Of a stretch of 64,000 bases of DNA, positions 1-20,200 are shown in pieces. The first letter of the stretch is position 1; each line of letters begins with the position of its first letter. Made by a program: the position numbers and the translations under genes. The notes beneath the pieces were generated by a model that ran no database searches, was not told the DNA's origin, and was given only the letters and a program-made list of their open reading frames with translations. This DNA comes from Polyangia bacterium (lineage in GTDB: Bacteria > Myxococcota_A > Polyangia > Palsa-1104 > JAEUJZ01), in assembly GCA_046351595.1 (NCBI GenBank), contig JAXLYE010000004.1, positions 513,219 to 577,218 of the forward strand, given 5' to 3'.

Positions 1-201
1 CCAGCCCGCGCGGCGTTCCCGAGTCGCTGCTGCCGCCGCGCCGGCTGTCGCGCGCGGCGGGCCGCAAGGCGACCCCGCGGGCGCTGTCATGAGGCCGGCC
101 CTAGGCGCCGTGAAAAGTTCTCGCTCGCTCGTCGCTGCGCGCGCCCCGCTTGCGGCGGTCGCGGGCGCTTGCGAAGATGTCTCTGCCTGCGCTCCTGGGA
201 C

Positions 202-600
202 CGCTGCACGGCTAGCGTCCCGTCCGCGATGGAACGTCGCGGCTGCTCATGACCTGCATTGGAGAACGCGGAGTCGCGCACTGCCGCTTGCGGCTCTTCG
301 CAGTGTGCGCACCGCTGCACAGCAAGTAGTCGCGGTCCCAGGAGCTGCAGACTTTTTCGTGTCACCTTCTCCCTTCGGGGTCCGGGTCGGCCCAGGGCTA
401 GCGTATGGTCCGCGATGGAACGTCGCGGCTGACTCAGACCGGCACAATACAAGGCGGTGGGCCGAGTCGCCGCCAGCGGCTCTTCGCAGCTCGCGAGCGA
501 GCGCTTCGGCCCATCCCCGACCGGGTGGTCGCGAGCTGACGCCTTCGGCTCGAAGCGACTCGGCCACCGCTGCATCGGAAGTAGCGCCGGCCCGGACCCC
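202..600 (+). repeat. Diverged tandem duplication of about 190 bp (copy 1 about 202-345, copy 2 about 385-600). Each copy carries the hairpin CCGCGA-TGGAACG-TCGCGG (227-245 and 413-431) plus the shared blocks GGCTCTTCGCAG and CACCGCTGCA..AAGTAG..CG. It lies immediately upstream of, and overlaps the 5' end of, the retron RT ORF. Candidate retron msr/msd ncRNA region.
   Basis: Direct sequence comparison of the two segments: GCTAGCGTCCCGTCCGCGATGGAACGTCGCGGCTG against GCTAGCGTATGGTCCGCGATGGAACGTCGCGGCTG. The inverted-repeat stem is present in both copies. The position relative to the RT gene matches retron architecture. Confidence 0.35.
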
Positions 601-2160
601 GAGCTTCTCTGTCCGTCCGCTTTCTTCGTCGTCGTGTCGGAGGCCGTCGTGAGCCTGGCTGCGCTCCTTCTGAAGCTGCGCCCCCTGGTTTCGGGAGAGC
701 GCGTCAACTGGCCGCAGGTGTTCGCGCTGCTGCGCGGCAAGTCGGATCTGGCCGAGTACGAGGTCGCGCGCCTGTACGTCGCCCGCGTCGCCTCGCCGGG
801 CCTGCACCGCATGGCACGCAGCGTCGACCCGCGCGAGCGGGTGCAGGCGGCCAAGGGGATCCGCCTGTGCTGCACCCGGCAGGAGGCGGCGACGCTCCTG
901 CGCCCGCTGGTCAAGGACGTCGACAGCCACGTGCGCAGCGCCGCCCACGCCTCGGTGCGCGCGCTCGCGCTAGAGGACGTGGCGCTGCCCGATACGCGCT
1001 TCAAGCCGCCGCGCCGGCCCGACACGCTGCGCCCCGGCGGCTGGAACCCGACCGGCTGGTCGTTCGGTCTGTTCGGCCGCCGCTACTGGTACTGGAGCCA
1101 GAGCCCGAGCGCGAAGAAGAAGGGCGCGAAGAAGCCGGACCTCAAGAAGCTCGGTGTGCCGCCGCTCGGCTCGGTCGACGAGCTCGTGAAGTGGCTGGGG
1201 CTGGGCACGGCGAAGGACCTGCGGCGCTACATGCGGCCCGGCGCCGGCCCCGGCTCGCCCTACGTGCAGTTCACCATCCCGAAGTCGAGCGGCGAGCCGC
1301 GCACCATCACCGCGCCGCGCGCCTCGCTCAAGAAGCTGCAGCGCCGCATCCTCGACGAGATCCTGGCCAAGCTCGAGCCGCACGAGGCGGCGCACGGCTT
1401 CGTCCGCAGGCGCTCGGTGCTGAGCAACGCGCGGCCGCACCAGGGCGCAAAGCTCGTCGTGAAGATGGACCTGCGCGACTTCTTCCCGAGCATCTCGTAC
1501 AAGCGCGTTACCGGCCTGTTCCAGAGCTACGGCCTCGGCGAAGAGGTCGCGGCGGCGCTGGCCGGCCTGTGCACGCACCGCGCCGTGCTGCCCGACGGGT
1601 TCGTGCTGTGGCCCGGGGTGCTGCCGCAGGGCGCGCCGACCTCGCCGGCGCTGGCCAACCTCTTGTGCCGCCGGCTCGACGCGCGCCTCTCGGGTCTGGC
1701 CCGCCGCGCCGGGGCCGCGTATACGCGCTACGCCGACGACATGACGTTTTCGTGGCGGGAGCCGCCCAGCGCGGTCGCCGCCTCGGCCGAGCCGGCCGGC
1801 AAGAAGCCCGGGCTCGGGCGCTTCCTGTGGTGGGTCGAGCAGGTCTGCCTGCAGGAGGGCTTCGTCGAGAACGCCACCAAGCGCCGGGTCCTGCGCGCCT
1901 CGGGCCAGCAGCGCGTCACCGGCATCGTCGTAAACTCCGGGCTCTCGGTGCCGCGGCAGGCGCGGCGGCGGTTCCGCGCCCTCTTGCACAACTGCAAGGT
2001 CGCGGGCGTGGCGTCGCAGGCGCGCGGCCGCTCCGACTTCCGCGCGTACCTGCTCGGCTACGCCTCGTACATCAAGATGGTCCACCCCGCGCTCGGCGCG
2101 CGCCTCTTGCGCGAGGTCCGCGAGGTCCTGCGCAGCGACCGCGGCCCGACGGAGTCGTAG
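457..2160 (+). CDS. Retron-type reverse transcriptase with an N-terminal extension of about 230 aa (Mx162/Mx65-like). The RT domain starts near 1150-1230; the true start codon may be downstream of 457.
   Basis: Translation carries YVQFTIPKSSGEPRTITAP (the start of the RT finger), the NARPH (NAxxH) motif, QGAPTSPALANL (QGxxxSP), YADDMTF (YADD catalytic motif) and VTGIVVN (the retron VTG motif). A long N-terminal extension matches myxobacterial retron RTs. The RT gene is convergent with the downstream gene. Confidence 0.8.
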   Translation: MGRVAASGSSQLASERFGPSPTGWSRADAFGSKRLGHRCIGSSAGPDPELLCPSAFFVVVSEAVVSLAALLLKLRPLVSGERVNWPQVFALLRGKSDLAEYEVARLYVARVASPGLHRMARSVDPRERVQAAKGIRLCCTRQEAATLLRPLVKDVDSHVRSAAHASVRALALEDVALPDTRFKPPRRPDTLRPGGWNPTGWSFGLFGRRYWYWSQSPSAKKKGAKKPDLKKLGVPPLGSVDELVKWLGLGTAKDLRRYMRPGAGPGSPYVQFTIPKSSGEPRTITAPRASLKKLQRRILDEILAKLEPHEAAHGFVRRRSVLSNARPHQGAKLVVKMDLRDFFPSISYKRVTGLFQSYGLGEEVAAALAGLCTHRAVLPDGFVLWPGVLPQGAPTSPALANLLCRRLDARLSGLARRAGAAYTRYADDMTFSWREPPSAVAASAEPAGKKPGLGRFLWWVEQVCLQEGFVENATKRRVLRASGQQRVTGIVVNSGLSVPRQARRRFRALLHNCKVAGVASQARGRSDFRAYLLGYASYIKMVHPALGARLLREVREVLRSDRGPTES

Positions 2161-2164
2161 CTCG

Positions 2165-3124
2165 CTACTCCGTGCTGCGCGGGCTCGCGGCCAGCGCGGC
2201 GCGCAGCGCGGCGAGCTCCTGCTCGTTCTCCGCGAGCAGCCGATCGCGCTCGGCGCGCTCCTGCAGCAAGAGCTCGATGTGCCGCTGGCTGCGGCGCAGC
2301 TTGTCCTCCAGGCGCTTGCGCTGGAAGAACTCCGGGATGCGGGCCGCGGCCTCGCGCGCGGCGCCCTCTTCGTGTGCGCCGGCGCGGTACATGCCAAGGT
2401 GCTCGGACAGGCGCCACGGCGGCGACATGATGAAGCGGCAGGCCGCGTGGCCGGCGGCGCGGCAGGTGATCTCGACGGCGGCCAGCGGCAGGCCGAAGCT
2501 CTCTTCGCACCAGCCCGAGGAGTACCCCGCGTTCATCGCGCACACCGGCTGGCTCGCCTGCCGACCGCGCCGGATCCACGAGTCGGCCTCGAACGAGTAG
2601 GGGTGATCGTAGATCAGGTAGTAGTTCTCGTTGGGCACCACGCGGCTGCTCGGATCGATGCGCACCTTTGCCCAGCCCGAGAACGCGAACTGCACCGGCC
2701 CGATCGACAGGCGCTCGACGGGCTCGGTGATGCCCATGTGCGCGTGGAAGTGGCGCGCGTCCGACTTGCCGATGGCGTGCCCGAGATCGAACAGCAGGTT
2801 GGCCGCGAGCTTGCGCGCCTCGTGCTCACTGCCCTCGCTGTAGATGCCGGCTAACAGGTCCGTGAACTCGAGCGACATGGCGCCGGCGCGCATCAGGATG
2901 TAGCGCTCGCCGGAGACCTCGAGCGTGCCGTGCGCGGGGTCGTGGCGCAGGCTGCCGAAGTAGCGCCGCGCGTACTCCTCGGCCTTGCGGAACAGCGGCG
3001 CGAACTGCGGCGGGACGTCCACGGTCTCGACGGAGTCGACGGAGTCGGGGGCAGGGGAGGGGCCGCCCGACTCGTGCGGCTCGTGCGGCTCGCGGGGACG
3101 GCTCGGATCGTGGCTCGAGGTCAT
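2165..3124 (-). CDS. V4R / XylR-N-like ligand-sensing domain protein with a coiled-coil C-terminus. Its start overlaps the stop of the upstream cyclase gene by 4 bp (ATGA).
   Basis: Clean ORF with good codon usage. Resemblance to activator-of-aromatic-catabolism / 4-vinyl-reductase domains (GERYILMRAGAMS...LLFDLGHAIG, and a Cys-containing C-terminal half GWCEESFG...CRAAGHAAC). Translationally coupled to the 3121..7206 gene. Confidence 0.45.
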   Translation of the reverse strand: MTSSHDPSRPREPHEPHESGGPSPAPDSVDSVETVDVPPQFAPLFRKAEEYARRYFGSLRHDPAHGTLEVSGERYILMRAGAMSLEFTDLLAGIYSEGSEHEARKLAANLLFDLGHAIGKSDARHFHAHMGITEPVERLSIGPVQFAFSGWAKVRIDPSSRVVPNENYYLIYDHPYSFEADSWIRRGRQASQPVCAMNAGYSSGWCEESFGLPLAAVEITCRAAGHAACRFIMSPPWRLSEHLGMYRAGAHEEGAAREAAARIPEFFQRKRLEDKLRRSQRHIELLLQERAERDRLLAENEQELAALRAALAASPRSTE

Positions 3125-13191: not shown

Positions 13192-15313
13192 CTACCCGCT
13201 GCCGGCGGTTGTCCGCGCAGCCGCTGCTTGGACGCGCAGCGATCGGAGCTCGGTCACCCAGTCACAATCAGGCGGCATCGACATGCGGACGGAGCGCCCG
13301 GCCGGCCCGCCGAAGAACGCCGTCGCCAGGATCTGACCGAGCACAGAGCTGCTACCCGTGAAGCCCTGGCTCTCTCCGCGCACCCGCTCCTGCAGCAGAG
13401 GCTCCAGGTCCATCGGCTGCAGCGTGACGACCAGCAGGTACTCCAGCTGCGCTTCGGTCGGGCGCTGCCCGTCCGCACGTACGGGCAGCTCGCGCGGGAA
13501 GCGGACCCGGATCGGTCTCCCCTCTCCGAGCCCGATCCGTCCGCTGCCGTGCGCAGCCAGCGGAGCGCTTGCCCCGCGCGGCGGATAGACCTGCCGGATG
13601 CCGGCGGCCTGATCGATCTCAAGCACCGAGACGTAGACCTCGAGCCGCGAGCGGTTGGTGATCTCCAGAGCCAGCTGCGCACCGTCTGTGACGATCGGGA
13701 GCTCGGTCGGAGCCTTGTGCAGCGCAGTCGGGTCGCCCGATCCGGGCAGCAGGTAGATGGCGAGGTCGAGCTGTCCGCGCAGCGCGCTGCGTGGGTTGCA
13801 GAGGGTGCGGACAAAGTGCCTTCGCACCAGGCGCTCCAGGTTCTTCAGCACGCCCTGCGTCTGCACGCGGCGCAGCGGCGCGCCCCAGATCTCACCGCCG
13901 TCATCGACGATGAGGAAGCAGGTGTGATCCAGCGCGCCGAGCTGCGGGGCGATATCACCGGCTCGGATGTCCTGGCGGGCCGGGACCAGGTGCACACTCA
14001 AGCGCGGCGTCTCTTTACCCGCCACCAGCCGGAGCCAGGGAGAGCTCTGGATCCCGCTCAGCAGATCCTGCAGTTCATCACGGCTGCCCTTCTGCTGCGG
14101 GACCGCCTGCAGCTGCACGACGGCACCGCCCGCGCCGGTGTGATCATAGACCGCGACCGACCACTTCGTATCCAGCGGCTGCTCGGCGAGGACCGCGCGC
14201 CACAGCGGCTCGACCGGCCCGGCGTCGTGGATCAGGTGCGCCTGCGCGCGTGTCGCATCCGACGAGATCACCCGCACCCGGGGCCGCGCGCTCGCTTCCT
14301 CGGTGAGCTCCAGGTGCTGCGTGCCGGGCGGGAACAGCACCCATTCGCTGCTCACCACGACCCCGCGCGGCTTGCCTCCGCTCAGCCAGACCGTGCGCTC
14401 TGCGGTCACGCTCTCGACCAGGACATACGGTGCGATCTCGCGATCGCTCATGTCGAACAGCACCCGCTGCCGCGCGCCTTCGATCTGGGGGTGCTGGGTC
14501 GGGATCGCTCGAGTCACCGCGCAGGCGGCTCTCTCAAAGACGTCCTGGTAGGTCGATCCGGCGGGTGCGGACAGCAGGGCCTGCGCCAGCTCATACGTCA
14601 GCGCGCCGTGGTGGATCGTCTCTCCACCATCGAACACCGCGACCTCACGCGCCTTTTCCTTCGCCAGGCATGCACCGATGTATACGTAGTGATCGCTCGC
14701 GGGCAGCCACTCAGCCTGGCTCCCGAGCAGCGGCAGCAACTTCGGGTCGATCGGCGAGGCCGGTAGCTCGGAGAGCGCGCGCGGATCGGCCGGCAGCCCG
14801 CGCTCGCCGCTGAGCACCGGACCCGCCGAGCGGTGCATGGTGGCGGAGTGGCAGCAGTCAAATAGCAGCGTGATGAAGCGTGTCTTGTTCGCCAGCCGGA
14901 TCAGCCACAGCCGTAGCTCGTCATCGGTGATGTCGCGGTTCGGGTGCGCGCCGCGCCCGCTGTCGAACGGGATCAGCGTGTCATCGAGCTTCGGGTCCAG
15001 CTTGGTCCCCTCGCGGTCTGCCATCTGCGAGCCGTGGCCGGCGTAGAACAGGACCACGACATCATCCGGCGCGGTCCGCTCGACCAGCGCGTCCAGCTCA
15101 CGCAAGATCGCCGCGCGCGTCGCTGCCTCGTTGAGCAGGAGCGTCACGCTGGAGCGCGCAAAGCCGAACCGCTCGACGAGCAGCTGCTGGATGAGCCGTA
15201 CATCGTTCACGCAGCCGCGCAGATCGTGCGACTCCAGTACGTGCCCGCTGGCGTCTACGTGGCGCAGGAAGGGATAATTCTGGATTCCGATCAGCAGGGC
15301 GTGCCGGTTCATG
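13192..15313 (-). CDS. Caspase-like (peptidase C14 / metacaspase-type) domain protein with an uncharacterised C-terminal region of about 530 aa.
   Basis: N-terminal domain HALLIGIQNY...GCVNDV...DDVVVLFYAGHGSQ (catalytic His)...ITLLFDCCHSATM (catalytic Cys). ATG at 15313. Divergently oriented from the CHAT gene across a 235-bp intergenic region. Confidence 0.8.
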
Positions 15314-15548
15314 TCTGCTCCAGTGCGCGGGTCGTCAGGCCCAGGACCCGCCGGCCGCACGTACCCAATCAGTAACCTTATTCCGTCCCCCGTTACAGTG
15401 CCGCCACGGGGGGGAGACAGCGACCGGCCTGGGGTCCGGTGTGCAGCCACCTCGCGTCGACATCGCTCTGCATTGCGAGCGGACCGCCTGACGCTGCGGT
15501 GGCTGAGTGCGCGTGGCATGGTGATTGCTTTTTTGTCGCCAGACGTTC

Positions 15549-17246
15549 ATGAGTACGACAAAACCTACCATCCTGTTCCTGTCCGCGAACCCGAGTACCA
15601 CACGGAGGCTCGAGCTCGGTCAGGAACTGGGCGCGATCAAAGAGCAGCTTCGATCCTGCGGAGCCGAGGACCGGATCGAGCTGCAGATCGAGCCGGCGCT
15701 GCGTGCGGACATGCTGCAGGCGGCCCTGCTGGGACACCGACCGCAGATCGTCCACTTCAGCGCGCACGGCAGTCCCGAGGGAGAGCTGGAGCTCGGCGGC
15801 AGCGGCAGCGAGGATCTGCAGGCCGTCTCGGCCGCGCAGCTGAAGCAGGTATTTGAGGTCCTGGGCAAGGGCATCCTCTGCGTAGTGCTCAACGCCTGCT
15901 ACTCTGAGAAGCAGGCAGAGGCCCTGCGCTCGGTCGTTCCCTGCGTGGTGGGCATGTCCCGCGCCGTCAGCGACCCTGCCGCGCAGACCTTCGCCGCCAG
16001 CTTCTACCAGGCGCTGGCCCGCGGAGAGAACGTCGCCACCGCGTTCAAGGTCGGCTGCAATCAGATCGGATTTACGCCCGCGGCCGAAGAGCAGACCGTG
16101 CCGCGCCTGCTGGAGCATGAGGAGCACGGCGCCGAGCACCTGTATCTGTTCCCTCCCGAGCCCGTGAGCGAGCCGCCGGTCAGCCCCAGGCGGGAGTCCG
16201 GAGGCAGCGCAGCGGCTGCGCCAGAGAACGCGAGCTGGGAGGGACTCCTCCGGATGACAACCATCCGTGAGCACCTCTCGAGCTTTCGCAGCCTGTTCGC
16301 CACGGTCAGCGAGCAGATCCGCGAGCTGGCCTGGCACAAGAAGCTGCACGATCTCTTCCAGGAGCTCAACCACCCCTATCACAACCTGAAGAACGAGCTG
16401 GCCCGGTGTGGCGACACGCCCGATTCCTGGAAGAAGAACAAGAAGTACCTGGTAGGTCATATCAGCCTAACCAAGCTGAAGGGTCTTGAGATCCTCGCCC
16501 ACATCGAGTCCGCGCCGCCGCGCGTAAAGACCGTGTTCGAGGGGCGCAAGCGCATCCTGGCCAGCGCCATCCAGATGCTGGAGAAGGCCCAGAGCAGCGG
16601 CGACATCCGCGTGCTGAACACGGCCGTGTACGAGCGGCTGGCCAAGTCGCTTGAAAATGATCCAGCGGTGGCCAACCAGCACCTGGTCGAGATCGCAAGA
16701 GGCCTGGATCCTCAGCTGGTGCGGGTCGTCGATGCGCTCCAGAGCGCAAATTCAAAACTCAAGACCTCGGTCCACACGGACTCCCGGGTCCAGTTCCTGG
16801 GAGAGCAGATCCTGGAGCTGTCCAGCCTGCGCGAGAGCCTGTCCTGCCTGGTCGGTCAGCACGACTGCTGGCAGTCCTTTGACACCTACCTCCGCCCGGT
16901 GATCTCGGCGACGACCGTACCCGAGTTCAGATCGGGCTGGGAGCTGATCCGGATGGTCGAGCCCACCATCTTGACCCCGGAGGTCGAGACCGAGAAGTGG
17001 GCGGCTGACCTGAAGAAGAGGAGCGCAGACATCGAGCAGGCGCTGGCCGCGGAGAAACCCGCGGAGGGCTCCGCCAAGGCGAGCGATGAAGACTGCAGCG
17101 TCTTCGGGCTTAATCAGGAGTACTTCGACATCGCCACCATGCGGTTTGAAGAGATCGACAAAGCGCTGCTGCGCGTGTGCGAGAAGCTGAAAGAAAAGGG
17201 CGACCTGTTGGACGTCGCGGTGAGGATGCTCGATGGAAAACCGTAG
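15549..17246 (+). CDS. CHAT-domain (caspase-fold protease-like) protein with a helical C-terminal region.
   Basis: N-terminal block ILFLSANP...IVHFSAHG (His)...VVLNACYS (Cys) matches the conserved CHAT dyad pattern. The stop overlaps the next gene's start (ATGGAAAACCGTAG), indicating translational coupling. Confidence 0.7.
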   Translation: MSTTKPTILFLSANPSTTRRLELGQELGAIKEQLRSCGAEDRIELQIEPALRADMLQAALLGHRPQIVHFSAHGSPEGELELGGSGSEDLQAVSAAQLKQVFEVLGKGILCVVLNACYSEKQAEALRSVVPCVVGMSRAVSDPAAQTFAASFYQALARGENVATAFKVGCNQIGFTPAAEEQTVPRLLEHEEHGAEHLYLFPPEPVSEPPVSPRRESGGSAAAAPENASWEGLLRMTTIREHLSSFRSLFATVSEQIRELAWHKKLHDLFQELNHPYHNLKNELARCGDTPDSWKKNKKYLVGHISLTKLKGLEILAHIESAPPRVKTVFEGRKRILASAIQMLEKAQSSGDIRVLNTAVYERLAKSLENDPAVANQHLVEIARGLDPQLVRVVDALQSANSKLKTSVHTDSRVQFLGEQILELSSLRESLSCLVGQHDCWQSFDTYLRPVISATTVPEFRSGWELIRMVEPTILTPEVETEKWAADLKKRSADIEQALAAEKPAEGSAKASDEDCSVFGLNQEYFDIATMRFEEIDKALLRVCEKLKEKGDLLDVAVRMLDGKP

Positions 17247-20200
17247 CGAAGGCGCGTCGAGTAGTGATTCCGTCTCCTCCGAGATGGCTGCGCTCAAGGC
17301 GCTGCTGGCGCATATCGAAGAAGCGCTGAAGACGCGGGCCGTCATTGACGCCATGTCGGCGCTGCGCGACGCCCAGGTCGCGCTCAGCGAAGCGCGCCAG
17401 CGCGGCGGAGAGACCCCGGAGTTCGTCGTGCTCCTGGAGCGGCTGCTGGCAGTGGGCCGGGCGCTCGGGGCGCTCCTGGACAGCTCCAGAGAGCGCGGGC
17501 ATGCGCAGAGCCTCCTCAGCTTCTGGGGCAACCTGCTGCTCCATGCCGGCCGCGAGAGCCCGGACATCACGCTCGCGGATTTTGATCGCGAGCAGCTCCC
17601 GACTCTCGAAGACAAGCAGTGTCCCTACCTGGGCCTGGAGACGTTCCACGAGGAGGACAGCGGTCGCTTCTTTGGCCGCAACAGGGTCATCGAGAAGCTG
17701 GAGAACACGCTGGCGCAGGGGCGCGTCCTGGCGGTGCTGGGCCCGTCGGGGAGCGGCAAGTCCTCGGTCGTGCTGGCCGGGCTGGTCCCGCGCCTCTGCA
17801 AGCGCCTGGGCATCAGCGCGCTGATCATGGTCCCTGGGACGGAGCCGGTGGCGGCGCTGCGCGCGCTCGGGATCTCGGCGGAGCAGACCCGTCCCGTCTT
17901 CCTGGTCGTCGACCAGCTGGAAGAGATCTTCACCCTGTGCGACAGCGAGGCGCTGAGGCAGCAGTTCTTCTCGGAGATCCTGGCGCTGATCCGCAGCCCG
18001 ATCGAGCACAAGGTCGTCCTGACGCTTCGCAGCGACTTCGAGGAGAACCTGGCGGAGTACAAGGAGCTCAACGAGCTCCTGCACGCAAAGAATCACCATG
18101 AGGTCATCGAACCGCTGAGCAAGGACGAGCTGCGCGAAGCCATCGAGCGACCGGCCGCCGAGGTCGGGCTGCGCTTCGAGGCCGGCGTGGTGGACAGGCT
18201 CATCGACGATGTCGTCGGACAGCCGGCCAGCCTGCCGCTGCTCCAGTTCGCGCTCCTCAAGCTGTGGGACATGCGTGATCACAACCGCATCACGCTGGCT
18301 CTTTACAACAGCCTGGGCGGTGCGCGCGAGGCGCTGTGCAACTGCGCGGACGATGTCTACCAGCACCTGCAGGAGGAGGACAAGAAGACCGCGGACAAGG
18401 TGCTGCTTCTGCTGGCCGTGCCCGTGGCGACGCGACGGGAGGTGACGCGCAGCCGTGTCTCTTTGTCCGAGCTCTACGGCTCTCTGGGAGAAACCCGAGA
18501 GCGCGTGGATCGGATCCTTGCTTCGTTCGAGCAGGCGCGCTTGCTGCGGCGGACGCCGAAGCGGGTCAGCGGCCAGGCGGAGCCGCCGCCCGACAAGGTC
18601 CTGATCGAGTTCGCGCACGAGGCGCTCGTGCGCAACTGGGATCGCCTCGAGGAGCAGATCGACTCCGTCCGCGAGTGGCTCGGTCGCAAGCGCGAGCTGG
18701 AAGCGCTGGCGCAGAGCTGGATCCGCCGGCAGAAGGAGAGCCCGGACGCCGGCCTGCTCGGCTCCGAGGAGGTCCGCAGCGCCGAGCGCGACAAGCAGGA
18801 GATCGAGCGTCTCGGGATCCCGGTGGACGCAGGGGTCGGCCGGCTGATCGAGGCCAGCATCGCGGCCGTTGACCGAAAGGAGCAGGAGCAGGAGCGGGCC
18901 CGGATGCTCGAGCAGGACCGGCTCCGTGAGCAGGCGCTGGCGCAGGAGAAGCTGGCCCAGAGCGAGCGGCTGCGTGCGGACCAGGCGGCGGCGGCTGCGG
19001 CGAGCGCGAGCGTGAGCCGGCGGCGCCTGCAGTGGGCCACGGCGCTGCTCGGGGTCGCGCTGACCCTGGCGCTGGGCTGCTTCCTCTTCTTCCTCTGGTA
19101 CAAGGACAAGGTGCAGAAGCAGACCGCACGGTCCGAAGCGGACGCATGGATCGAGCAGGCCCGCCAGCTCCTGAACCCGGTGCCGACACCGGACCGGAAC
19201 CCTGCCATCCTCGAGCTCAACCGCCTCTACACGGCGCATCCCGACGATCCGCTGCTGCCGGACCTGTTGGCGGACGTGCGGCGGCGCATGTTCGACGGGC
19301 TCCACACCATCCTGGTCGGCCACGAGGAGCCCGTCTCGGGCGGCGTATTCAGCCCGGACGGACTCTCAATCGTCACGGTCGATGAGAAGGGCAAGCTCGT
19401 GCTCTGGGACGTCGAGTCCGGTGGCCAGAAGAGCTCCGTGCCCGCAAAGGCAGCGCGCAGCATCACCTGGAGCCCGAGCGGACGGTCCCTGGCTGCAGGC
19501 TGCGCAGAGGGCCGCATCCAGATCTGGGAGGTGGACCAGCAGCGCTTCAGCCGCAGCCTGCCCGCACCGCAGCCCAACGCAGACAACGGCGCCATCACGA
19601 GCCTGACCTACAGCCCGGACGGCCGCAGCCTGGCCGCTGCGGGCTGGCCCAGCGTGGTTATCTGGAGATTGGACGAAGCGGGGACCGCGTGGCGGCCGGT
19701 GCGCGCGCTGCGCGTGTCGGACGAGCCCCTCGGCTCCCAGCCGACGGCCCCGACCGAGGCCCTGCCGATGGCCGACCAGCGCGTACAGCGTGCGGCGGAG
19801 CCGCGCGCCCCCAGCGCCGACAAGCCGCTCCAGGTAGCCAAGTCCAACCCTCCGCTTGAGCGCACCCCCGTGAGCTACGCCGCCTGGAGCCCCGACGGGC
19901 AGATCCTTGCCACTGCGTGGGACAGCTCGCAAGCGGTGAGGCTCTGGCATGTTCGGACCGGTGGGCTGCTGAAGACCGTCGCACACCTCAGCAACGTCCG
20001 CGGCGTCGCCTTCAGCCCCGACGGGCGCAGCTTCGCGACGATCGGGGAGGACGGCGTGGCGCGCCTGTGGATCACCAGCAGCGGCACGCCGGCGCGGCTC
20101 AGCCGCCGCGGACATGGCGGTGAGGCATTCGGCGTGGCCTGGAGCCCGGACGGGCGCCAGCTCGTCACCGCGGGCCGCGACCGGACGGCACGGGTGTGGG

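Follow-up and report, generated by a model that had tools for sequence, protein, structure and literature searches.

The left end of the 64-kb window analysed here (the whole stretch of 64,000 nucleotides, from contig JAXLYE010000004.1 of a Polyangia bacterium) carries a retron locus. It very probably represents the 3' two-thirds of a retron operon from the myxobacterial branch of type XIII. The operon has three parts: a partner gene, two tandem non-coding RNA (ncRNA) genes, and a reverse transcriptase (RT) gene. The RT appears intact, both ncRNA genes have the anatomy of retron msr-msd units, and the partner gene is linked to the ncRNAs and the RT in related loci. The retron itself is ordinary for a myxobacterium and belongs to a long-known family; myxobacterial retrons were the first retrons discovered. 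What is noteworthy is the conserved two-template array with a short and a long msd, the partner with HEAT repeats and a probable pseudo-enzyme domain of the aldo/keto reductase (AKR) type in place of SWIM and WGR proteins, and the family-specific N-terminal domain of the RT. The locus and its relatives define a clean, testable operon of partner, ncRNA array, and RT. The features are listed in Table 1.

The reverse transcriptase and its N-terminal domain

Profile, motif, and fold comparisons support the RT as a real, intact retron RT of the Mx162/Mx65 clade (type XIII, clade 10). RT_XIII is the top match among the 66 RT models of PADLOC (2.3e-110), and the best 25 of the 66 model matches are all to retron RTs. 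This profile match, which spans only positions 92-426 of the 469 in RT_XIII, places the RT in clade 10 of Mestre 2020, the retron clade that includes Mx162, Mx65, Sa163, and Ne144 (PMC7736814). The retron families of NCBIfam match at about 1e-60, the group II intron RT at 5.5e-12, and Drt2 at 7e-07. The match to Pfam RVT_1 is 1.3e-17. Four motifs reported in the earlier note on this DNA, which was made from the sequence alone, are all in frame in the plus-strand open reading frame (ORF) that ends at 2160: NARPH (the NAxxH of region X; residues 260-264, nt 1426-1440), QGAPTSP (the QGxxxSP motif; residues 327-333, nt 1627-1647), YADD (residues 361-364, nt 1729-1740), and RVTGIVVN (the VTG motif; residues 422-429, nt 1912-1935).

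The closest PDB chain by sequence is the Ec86 retron RT (8e-36, with the match starting at residue 167). The AlphaFold2 model of the RT has a mean predicted local distance difference test (pLDDT) score of 88 and a predicted template modelling (pTM) score of 0.86. With this model Foldseek retrieves Ec86, Eco2, Eco7, Ec78, Ec83, and Eco8 at 2e-21 to 4e-13, the nearest fold being Ec86 (template modelling score 0.80 normalised to the target, E = 2e-21). RTs of group II introns and of diversity-generating retroelements (DGR) are retrieved at about 1e-10 or weaker. The RT has more than 3000 homologues and the nearest are from Myxococcota; the closest named full-length homologues, from Haliangium, Polyangiaceae, Hyalangium, Corallococcus, and Myxococcus, are 53-61% identical, with 53-56% for those of Myxococcus, Corallococcus, Hyalangium, and Haliangium. 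The proposal of a retron with a myxobacterial-type RT in the earlier note is thus borne out by the RT_XIII match, the motifs, the folds, and the homologues. A grouping with group II intron, DGR, or abortive infection (Abi) RTs and a lack of structured RNA upstream had been named there as signs of another identity; by profiles and folds the RT is nearest to retron RTs, and structured ncRNA is found upstream.

The RT gene is shorter than the span from 87 given in the earlier note, and nt 87-648 are not RT-coding. All 20 aligned homologues begin where GTG 649 lies (V/M-SLAALLL...), and a Shine-Dalgarno-like GGAGG stands 5 nt upstream of this codon; the gene is therefore 649-2160, encoding 503 aa. 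The longest ORF ending at 2160 opens at GTG 457. This start was rejected: residues 1-64 would have no counterpart in homologues, and they overlap ncRNA unit 2. Note that the G+C content of the window is 71% and that long spurious ORFs are abundant on both strands. The coding frame is the only frame in which the G+C content of third codon positions (GC3) is 0.95, and the same value is found in the RT and in neighbour genes.

An extended N-terminus is a described trait of myxococcal RTs (PMC6868368), and the extension reported in the earlier note is present. Its length is not about 230 aa but about 170 (165-175), because the gene starts at 649, the PDB match sets in at residue 167, and the RT fold of the model at about residue 176. 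The extension looks like a small HEAT-like helical domain followed by a linker, almost confined to this RT family. In the AlphaFold2 model the domain has six helices (3-14, 21-30, 37-56, 61-74, 77-87, and 93-105). The Pfam HEAT_2 match is weak (E = 0.016), and several RT homologues carry a precomputed HEAT_2 assignment. A fold search with the domain alone returns solely HEAT/ARM proteins at E = 0.03 or higher, weak matches that serve as supporting evidence only. Among 1.84 billion representative proteins the domain is found in just 42 clusters. Nearly all are proteins of 450-500 aa with the domain at their N-terminus, and in a few giant repeat proteins residues 72-107 are matched many times. 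The extension is conserved end to end in the homologues of Myxococcus, Corallococcus, Hyalangium, Haliangium, and Polyangiaceae.

Two ncRNA units and their conservation

The earlier note proposed a search for msr and msd upstream of the RT, and such a unit is found there twice. The two units are direct repeats with a common 68-nt msr core and the same 8-bp hairpin (224-242 in unit 1, 410-428 in unit 2), and their msd templates differ. In unit 1, a1 (191-204) and a2 (332-345) pair perfectly over 14 bp. In unit 2, a1 (374-391) and a2 (586-603) pair over 17-18 bp. Next to the inner stem of unit 1 (GCUA 211-214 paired to UAGU 327-330) stands the predicted branching guanosine G215 (UAGC 213-216), and next to that of unit 2 (GCUA 397-400 paired to UAGC 582-585) stands its predicted counterpart G401. 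UAGC together with the end of the inner stem is the conserved context of the retron priming guanosine (PMC6868368). At the level of sequence, the AGC of this branch motif is invariant in 14 aligned units. Both units also have a 3' RAAGUAG element just before a2.

The lengths of the predicted multicopy single-stranded DNAs (msDNA) are counted from the a2-proximal start (G326 and G581) to the conserved msr/msd junction, with the stop sites and the 3' limits of the templates inferred. Unit 1 has a template from about 262 to 326, which would give an msDNA of about 65 nt starting with 5'-CTTGC. The long template of unit 2, from about 450 to 581, would give an msDNA of about 130 nt, and this predicted DNA folds as a long hairpin (z = -3.0 against shuffles).

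The RNA folds of units 1 and 2 score z = -3.6 and -5.5 against shuffles. The terminal stem of unit 1 scores 28, which is reached by 2 of 400 random window anchors (top 0.5%), and that of unit 2 scores 34, reached by none of 400. A whole-unit MAFFT alignment was too ragged in a1 and a2, so only the msr core (68 nt) was modelled, and the terminal stems were found by script. The resulting covariance model, R1, is built from 14 units including both window units, which match by construction (77.5 bits for unit 1 and 62.5 bits for unit 2). It has no further match in the 64-kb window.

Related loci were collected, 80 from genomes and, with the N-terminal domain as the query, 38 from metagenomes, and the contigs of the closest proteins were added. 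In 45 other loci R1 matches directly upstream of a long-form RT; the loci numbered from L082 onward are outside the training set. Most units are 150-170 nt long, and none is longer than unit 2 in the window, L081, and L120, with 230 nt. The a1/a2 stems measure 13-26 bp and differ in sequence in every locus. The msr hairpin is paired in 100% across the 14 units with compensatory changes at three of its eight pairs, and across 29 units such changes are seen in the msd stem at 10 of 13 pairs.

Arrays of two or three units are found in about a quarter of the lineages, nine others besides the window. There are two units in L081, L120/L121, L123, L007, L084, L004, L112, and L097, and three in L101. 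L007, L084, and L123 share A and B unit types. Within every array the msr parts are more alike (0.80-0.98) than the msd parts (0.36-0.83). L081 and L120 have RTs that are 95% and 80% identical to that of the window, so the pair of a short and a long unit is kept in relatives with an RT only 80% identical. Compared with L120, the identity of the window is 94% for unit 1 and 79% for unit 2 (96% and 84% for the msd), against 71% for the third codon positions of the RT and 48-62% for the spacers. The changes in a1/a2 of unit 2 among the window, L081, and L120 are compensatory. Because of this conservation relative to spacers and third positions, the compensatory a1/a2 changes, and the positional orthologues, both units look maintained by selection, and neither looks like a decaying copy.

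Some loci differ in arrangement. L101 (294-855) has three tandem units in which the msr and a1/a2 are near-identical and the msd loop is identical, while the msd stems differ by fully compensatory changes. In L004 (4253-9518, Polyangium sp. 6x1) a two-unit array follows the HEAT + AKR-like gene, and the RT lies 3.4 kb further on. Three ORFs fill this gap, one of them a YhgA-like (Transposase_31) gene. Judged from this transposase gene, the separation of RT and array in L004 looks secondary. In the more distant relatives L013, L014, L015, L017, L018, and L020, from Planctomycetota and metagenome-assembled genomes of uncultured Myxococcota, the HEAT + AKR-like gene is upstream of the RT on the opposite strand. 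R1 has no match in these six loci, and the ncRNA there, if any, has diverged.

Two further stretches next to the units recur in relatives. In the leader, L081 and L120 have kept a block of about 50 nt (about 140-190) with CCCCGCTTGCGG and CTTGCGAA in it, unlike the spacer on either side. This block is a possible promoter or operator and has no match to the sigma-70 consensus. The second stretch, rich in pyrimidines (C/T), comes after the a2 arm in most units; in the window it lies in 346-373 (ACTTTTTCGTG, unit 1) and in 604-648 (CTTCTCTGTCCGTCCGCTTTCTTCG, unit 2), and most related loci have it too. It could mark a site of processing, termination, or RT binding.

Table 1. Features of the retron locus and of the genes around it (positions in the window)
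Feature	Position	Strand	Remarks
3' end of partner gene	1-92	+	frame 3, last 29 residues SPRGVPESLLPPRRLSRAAGRKATPRALS, stop codon 90-92; cut by window edge
Intergenic leader	93-190	+	between partner gene end and ncRNA unit 1
Retron ncRNA unit 1 (msr-msd), 155 nt	191-345	+	inverted repeat, RNA fold, covariance model
Retron ncRNA unit 2 (msr-msd), 230 nt	374-603	+	inverted repeat, RNA fold, covariance model
Shine-Dalgarno-like GGAGG	639-643	+	kept in L081
Retron RT gene	649-2160	+	503 aa + stop codon, GTG start; homologue alignment, profile and fold matches
N-terminal six-helix HEAT/ARM-like domain of RT, aa 1-105	649-963	+	AlphaFold2 model
RT linker, aa 106-175	964-1173	+	low model confidence; invariant PDxR...GGWNPTGW motif
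V4R/XylR_N protein	2165-3124	-	convergent with RT
Adenylate/guanylate cyclase + AAA_16 (STAND-like) ATPase, 1361 aa	3121-7206	-	4-nt overlap with V4R/XylR_N gene
Caspase-like Peptidase_C14 protein	13192-15546	-	cluster 11-20 kb from retron
CHAT-domain protein	15525-17246	+	same cluster as Peptidase_C14
nSTAND1 NTPase with WD40 repeats, 1655 aa	17224-22191	+	same cluster as Peptidase_C14

The partner gene and comparison with known retrons

The earlier note saw no separate effector gene nearby and placed any defence function in the RT extension or in a partner beyond the window. The first statement holds inside the window except for nt 1-92, where a conserved partner gene ends with its last 29 codons. 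Of the two options, the partner beyond the window is the one that the data favour. Of the 29 residues, 25 recur at the end of the protein that L081 encodes upstream of its ncRNAs. A tblastn search places the partner in 45 long-form loci. In most of them its gene is the immediate upstream neighbour on the same strand, and the usual distance from its end to the first ncRNA is 100-300 nt. No SWIM gene intervenes in these relatives, where the ncRNA comes next after the HEAT + AKR-like gene.

A full-length homologue in L120 (917-4090, 1057 aa) has the domains HEAT_2 and Aldo_ket_red, and the same pair occurs in L004, L008, L010, and L019 (940-1250 aa) and in the L081 fragment. HEAT_2 repeats are seen in the orthologues of L081, L120, and 43 more loci. 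Partner homologues match PADLOC HEAT-ARM_XIII weakly (1e-4 to 7e-11) or not at all, and the L120 partner has no match to any PADLOC model. The AKR-like domain aligns to solved AKRs at 2.6e-11. In all four sequences compared (L019 6596-7759, L081 2-799, L120 917-4090, and L123 1-1368), Gly replaces the catalytic Lys (VTGTY/VTGSY) and Phe replaces the catalytic His (DVFLLFW). Because both residues are replaced, the domain is probably non-enzymatic, a binding module rather than an enzyme. This protein with HEAT repeats and a degenerate AKR-like domain, about 1000 aa in relatives, is the effector candidate.

Canonical type XIII, as in Chitinophaga (L022), has a WGR + HEAT/ARM protein, a DEDE/winged-helix/SWIM protein, the ncRNA, and the RT. 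The RT cores match the same PADLOC RT_XIII, and upstream of the RT, on its strand, both systems have a gene for a large HEAT-repeat protein, which for the window system is known from its relatives. The N-terminal domain of the window RT differs, as is seen from the limited span of the RT_XIII match, and L022 has WGR_XIII (E = 0) and SWIM_XIII (1e-242) upstream of its RT. Of 60 short-form loci, tblastn detects SWIM in 51 (with the L022 protein as query) and WGR in 35, and none of the 60 has the HEAT + AKR-like partner. Neither SWIM nor WGR is found in the long-form loci or in the 64-kb window, so that SWIM_XIII (cluster 114), a component of type XIII as defined by Mestre et al. 2020 and PADLOC/DefenseFinder, is absent from the part of the locus inside the window. 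The myxobacterial branch has the RT core in common with type XIII and has its own N-terminal domain and its own partner. The two partner sets, HEAT + AKR-like and WGR + SWIM, never overlap in the loci examined; therefore current defence-finder models would call the window system incomplete.

Mx162, Mx65, Sa163, and Ne144 (Retron-Mxa1, -Mxa2, -Sau1, and -Nex2) belong to the same RT clade by hidden Markov model. Mx162 and Mx65 are separate retrons, each with its own RT. The window differs from them in having two ncRNA genes per RT, a comparison made through the clade profile and published descriptions. It is like this group in its host-like codon usage, in its extended RT N-terminus, and in an ncRNA directly upstream of the RT with long a1/a2 and the YAGC branch motif (PMC6868368). 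The primary transcript of Mx162, 241 nt (PMC6868368), is close in length to the 230 nt of unit 2.

Duplicated msr-msd units in a myxobacterial chromosome are also known from Retron-Nex1 (Ne160) of Nannocystis exedens. In the account of Lampson & Rice 1997 as given in PMC6868368, it has several duplicated repeats with no RT within a kilobase, and these were read in 1997 as retrotransposition. L004, with an array but no nearby RT, resembles Ne160. The array of the window differs from Ne160 by lying between the partner gene and the RT in an apparent single operon, with conserved orthologues rather than scattered copies. The present data favour a maintained multi-template array over the retrotransposition reading. 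Engineered retron arrays called multitrons, in which several msr-msd units are served by a single RT, are synthetic (PMC10370050); the window has the same layout of one RT with more than one unit, in a natural and conserved form. The short and long ncRNA pair is of possible interest for builders of multiplexed retron editors. On natural two-ncRNA retrons the literature gave nothing beyond Mestre 2020 and the Ne160 remark in a 2019 review, and on the type XIII mechanism or recent Mx162 work nothing beyond Mestre 2020 and the same review.

Retron-Eco1 (Ec86, type II-A) is the closest solved structure to the window RT. Ec86 is also the best-understood case of an RT-msDNA particle that holds an effector in check. 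It differs from the window system by its lack of an N-terminal extension, its other effector, its single ncRNA, and its other host phylum.

Proposed working, alternative readings and neighbouring genes

In the proposed working of the operon, one left-to-right transcript would carry both ncRNAs and the RT message, and each ncRNA would fold through its own a1/a2 terminal stem. The single RT would recognise the msr hairpin, identical in both units, prime from the 2'-OH of the UAGC guanosine (G215, G401), and copy the msd leftwards from G326 and G581. One enzyme would thus give two different branched msDNAs, the shorter from unit 1 and the longer from unit 2. By analogy with the solved complexes (Ec86, Eco2, Eco7, Ec78, Ec83, and Eco8), the RT-msDNA particle would be expected to bind and control the upstream partner protein, with the HEAT-like N-terminal domain of the RT as the likely docking surface. 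The output could be either abortive infection or a housekeeping role.

Several points weigh against this account. In the partner no toxin or nuclease domain can be recognised, and its AKR-like domain is without the catalytic Lys and His; the protein is present in the window solely as its last 29 residues, and its role as an effector is a guess. The msDNAs, their 2'-5' branch, and the sites at which the RT stops are predicted from sequence, and the DNA fold of the predicted short msDNA is no better than shuffles (z = -0.08). Rfam gives no retron or other RNA family in 1-3000 at E up to 10, and nothing in the whole window at gathering thresholds. A sigma-70 consensus scan found no promoter, and the single terminator-like site, the a2 stem of unit 1, is no more than shuffles give. 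No experimental defence phenotype for type XIII or myxobacterial retrons, and no report of myxobacterial retron function or of a type XIII effector mechanism, was found in the literature. The inheritance of type XIII looks vertical (PMC7736814).

It is quite possible, if on balance doubtful, that the retron is real and yet not anti-phage. The RT-msDNA particle would then have been domesticated and passed on vertically, to serve housekeeping or development in Myxococcota, and the partner would be a scaffold and not a toxin. The correlation of type XIII with host 16S and the vertical inheritance reported for myxobacterial retrons (PMC7736814, PMC6868368) agree with this alternative. So do the host-like codon usage (the common GC3 of the RT and its neighbours), the lack of mobile-element hallmarks around the locus in the window, and a partner with an inactive-looking AKR site and no toxin-like domain. 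In contrast, the diversified msd stems in arrays look like arms-race variation, and the caspase, CHAT, and nSTAND1-WD40 genes 11-20 kb away hint at an immune neighbourhood. To our knowledge, every retron type tested so far acts in defence, which also counts against a housekeeping role.

The operon reading can be carried further, as a tentative proposal that is a little less probable than the housekeeping alternative. The long-form RT, the HEAT/pseudo-AKR partner, and one to three ncRNA units may constitute a retron subtype of their own, without SWIM, in Myxococcota and Planctomycetota, and its natural arrays would let one RT make several msDNAs. A constant msr would serve recognition by the RT, the msd stems would diversify, and each msDNA would be a separate specificity or sensor module shown to the HEAT-repeat partner. 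If true, nature would here provide its first known multitron and a way to approach the role of myxobacterial msDNA.

That only one of the ncRNA units is used is unlikely; the other would be a copy in decay, or else an RNA that templates no msDNA and acts as a regulator or a decoy in competition for the RT. Neutral tandem duplications are common. Unit 2 has the lower msr model score (62.5 against 77.5 bits), is less conserved with respect to L120 (79% against 94%), and diverges just 3' of the hairpin, with AAUACAAGG where unit 1 has the near-consensus UGGAGAACG. Both units nevertheless have an intact a1/a2 stem with the adjoining UAGC, an identical hairpin, and the 3' RAAGUAG. The compensatory changes in a1/a2 of unit 2, the short and long pair kept down to 80% RT identity, and the arrays with positional orthologues in nine other lineages likewise speak against a single working unit.

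We practically discount the idea that the RT is a group II intron, DGR, Abi, or defence-associated RT (DRT)-type enzyme with unrelated repeats upstream: for it there are the common RVT_1 fold and the weak group II and Drt2 matches given above, and against it retron models that are better by about 50 to 100 orders of magnitude, retron RT folds at 2e-21 versus about 1e-10 for others, NAxxH and VTG, an upstream RNA with retron anatomy and covariation, and the absence of intron RNA, of a DGR template/variable repeat pair, and of a maturase domain.

The gene downstream of the RT is convergent with it, as the earlier note had read, and encodes the V4R/XylR_N protein. This gene and the cyclase-AAA_16 gene next to it were considered as effectors and rejected, being convergent and without a PADLOC match. 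The two genes recur solely in the closest relative, L081, where the V4R/XylR_N gene is in the same place. L120 has in its position a convergent 313-aa gene with no Pfam match, and in other loci the genes downstream of the RT differ. In L010 (9178-10770) and L019 (9416-10837) the gene just downstream of the RT has a conserved N-terminal domain and a repeat-rich C-terminal half, which in L010 consists of leucine-rich repeats according to Pfam; this gene is absent from the window and from most relatives. Farther from the retron, the Peptidase_C14, CHAT, and nSTAND1-WD40 genes form a cluster (13192-22191) that may be a conflict system resembling nucleotide-binding leucine-rich repeat (NLR) proteins.

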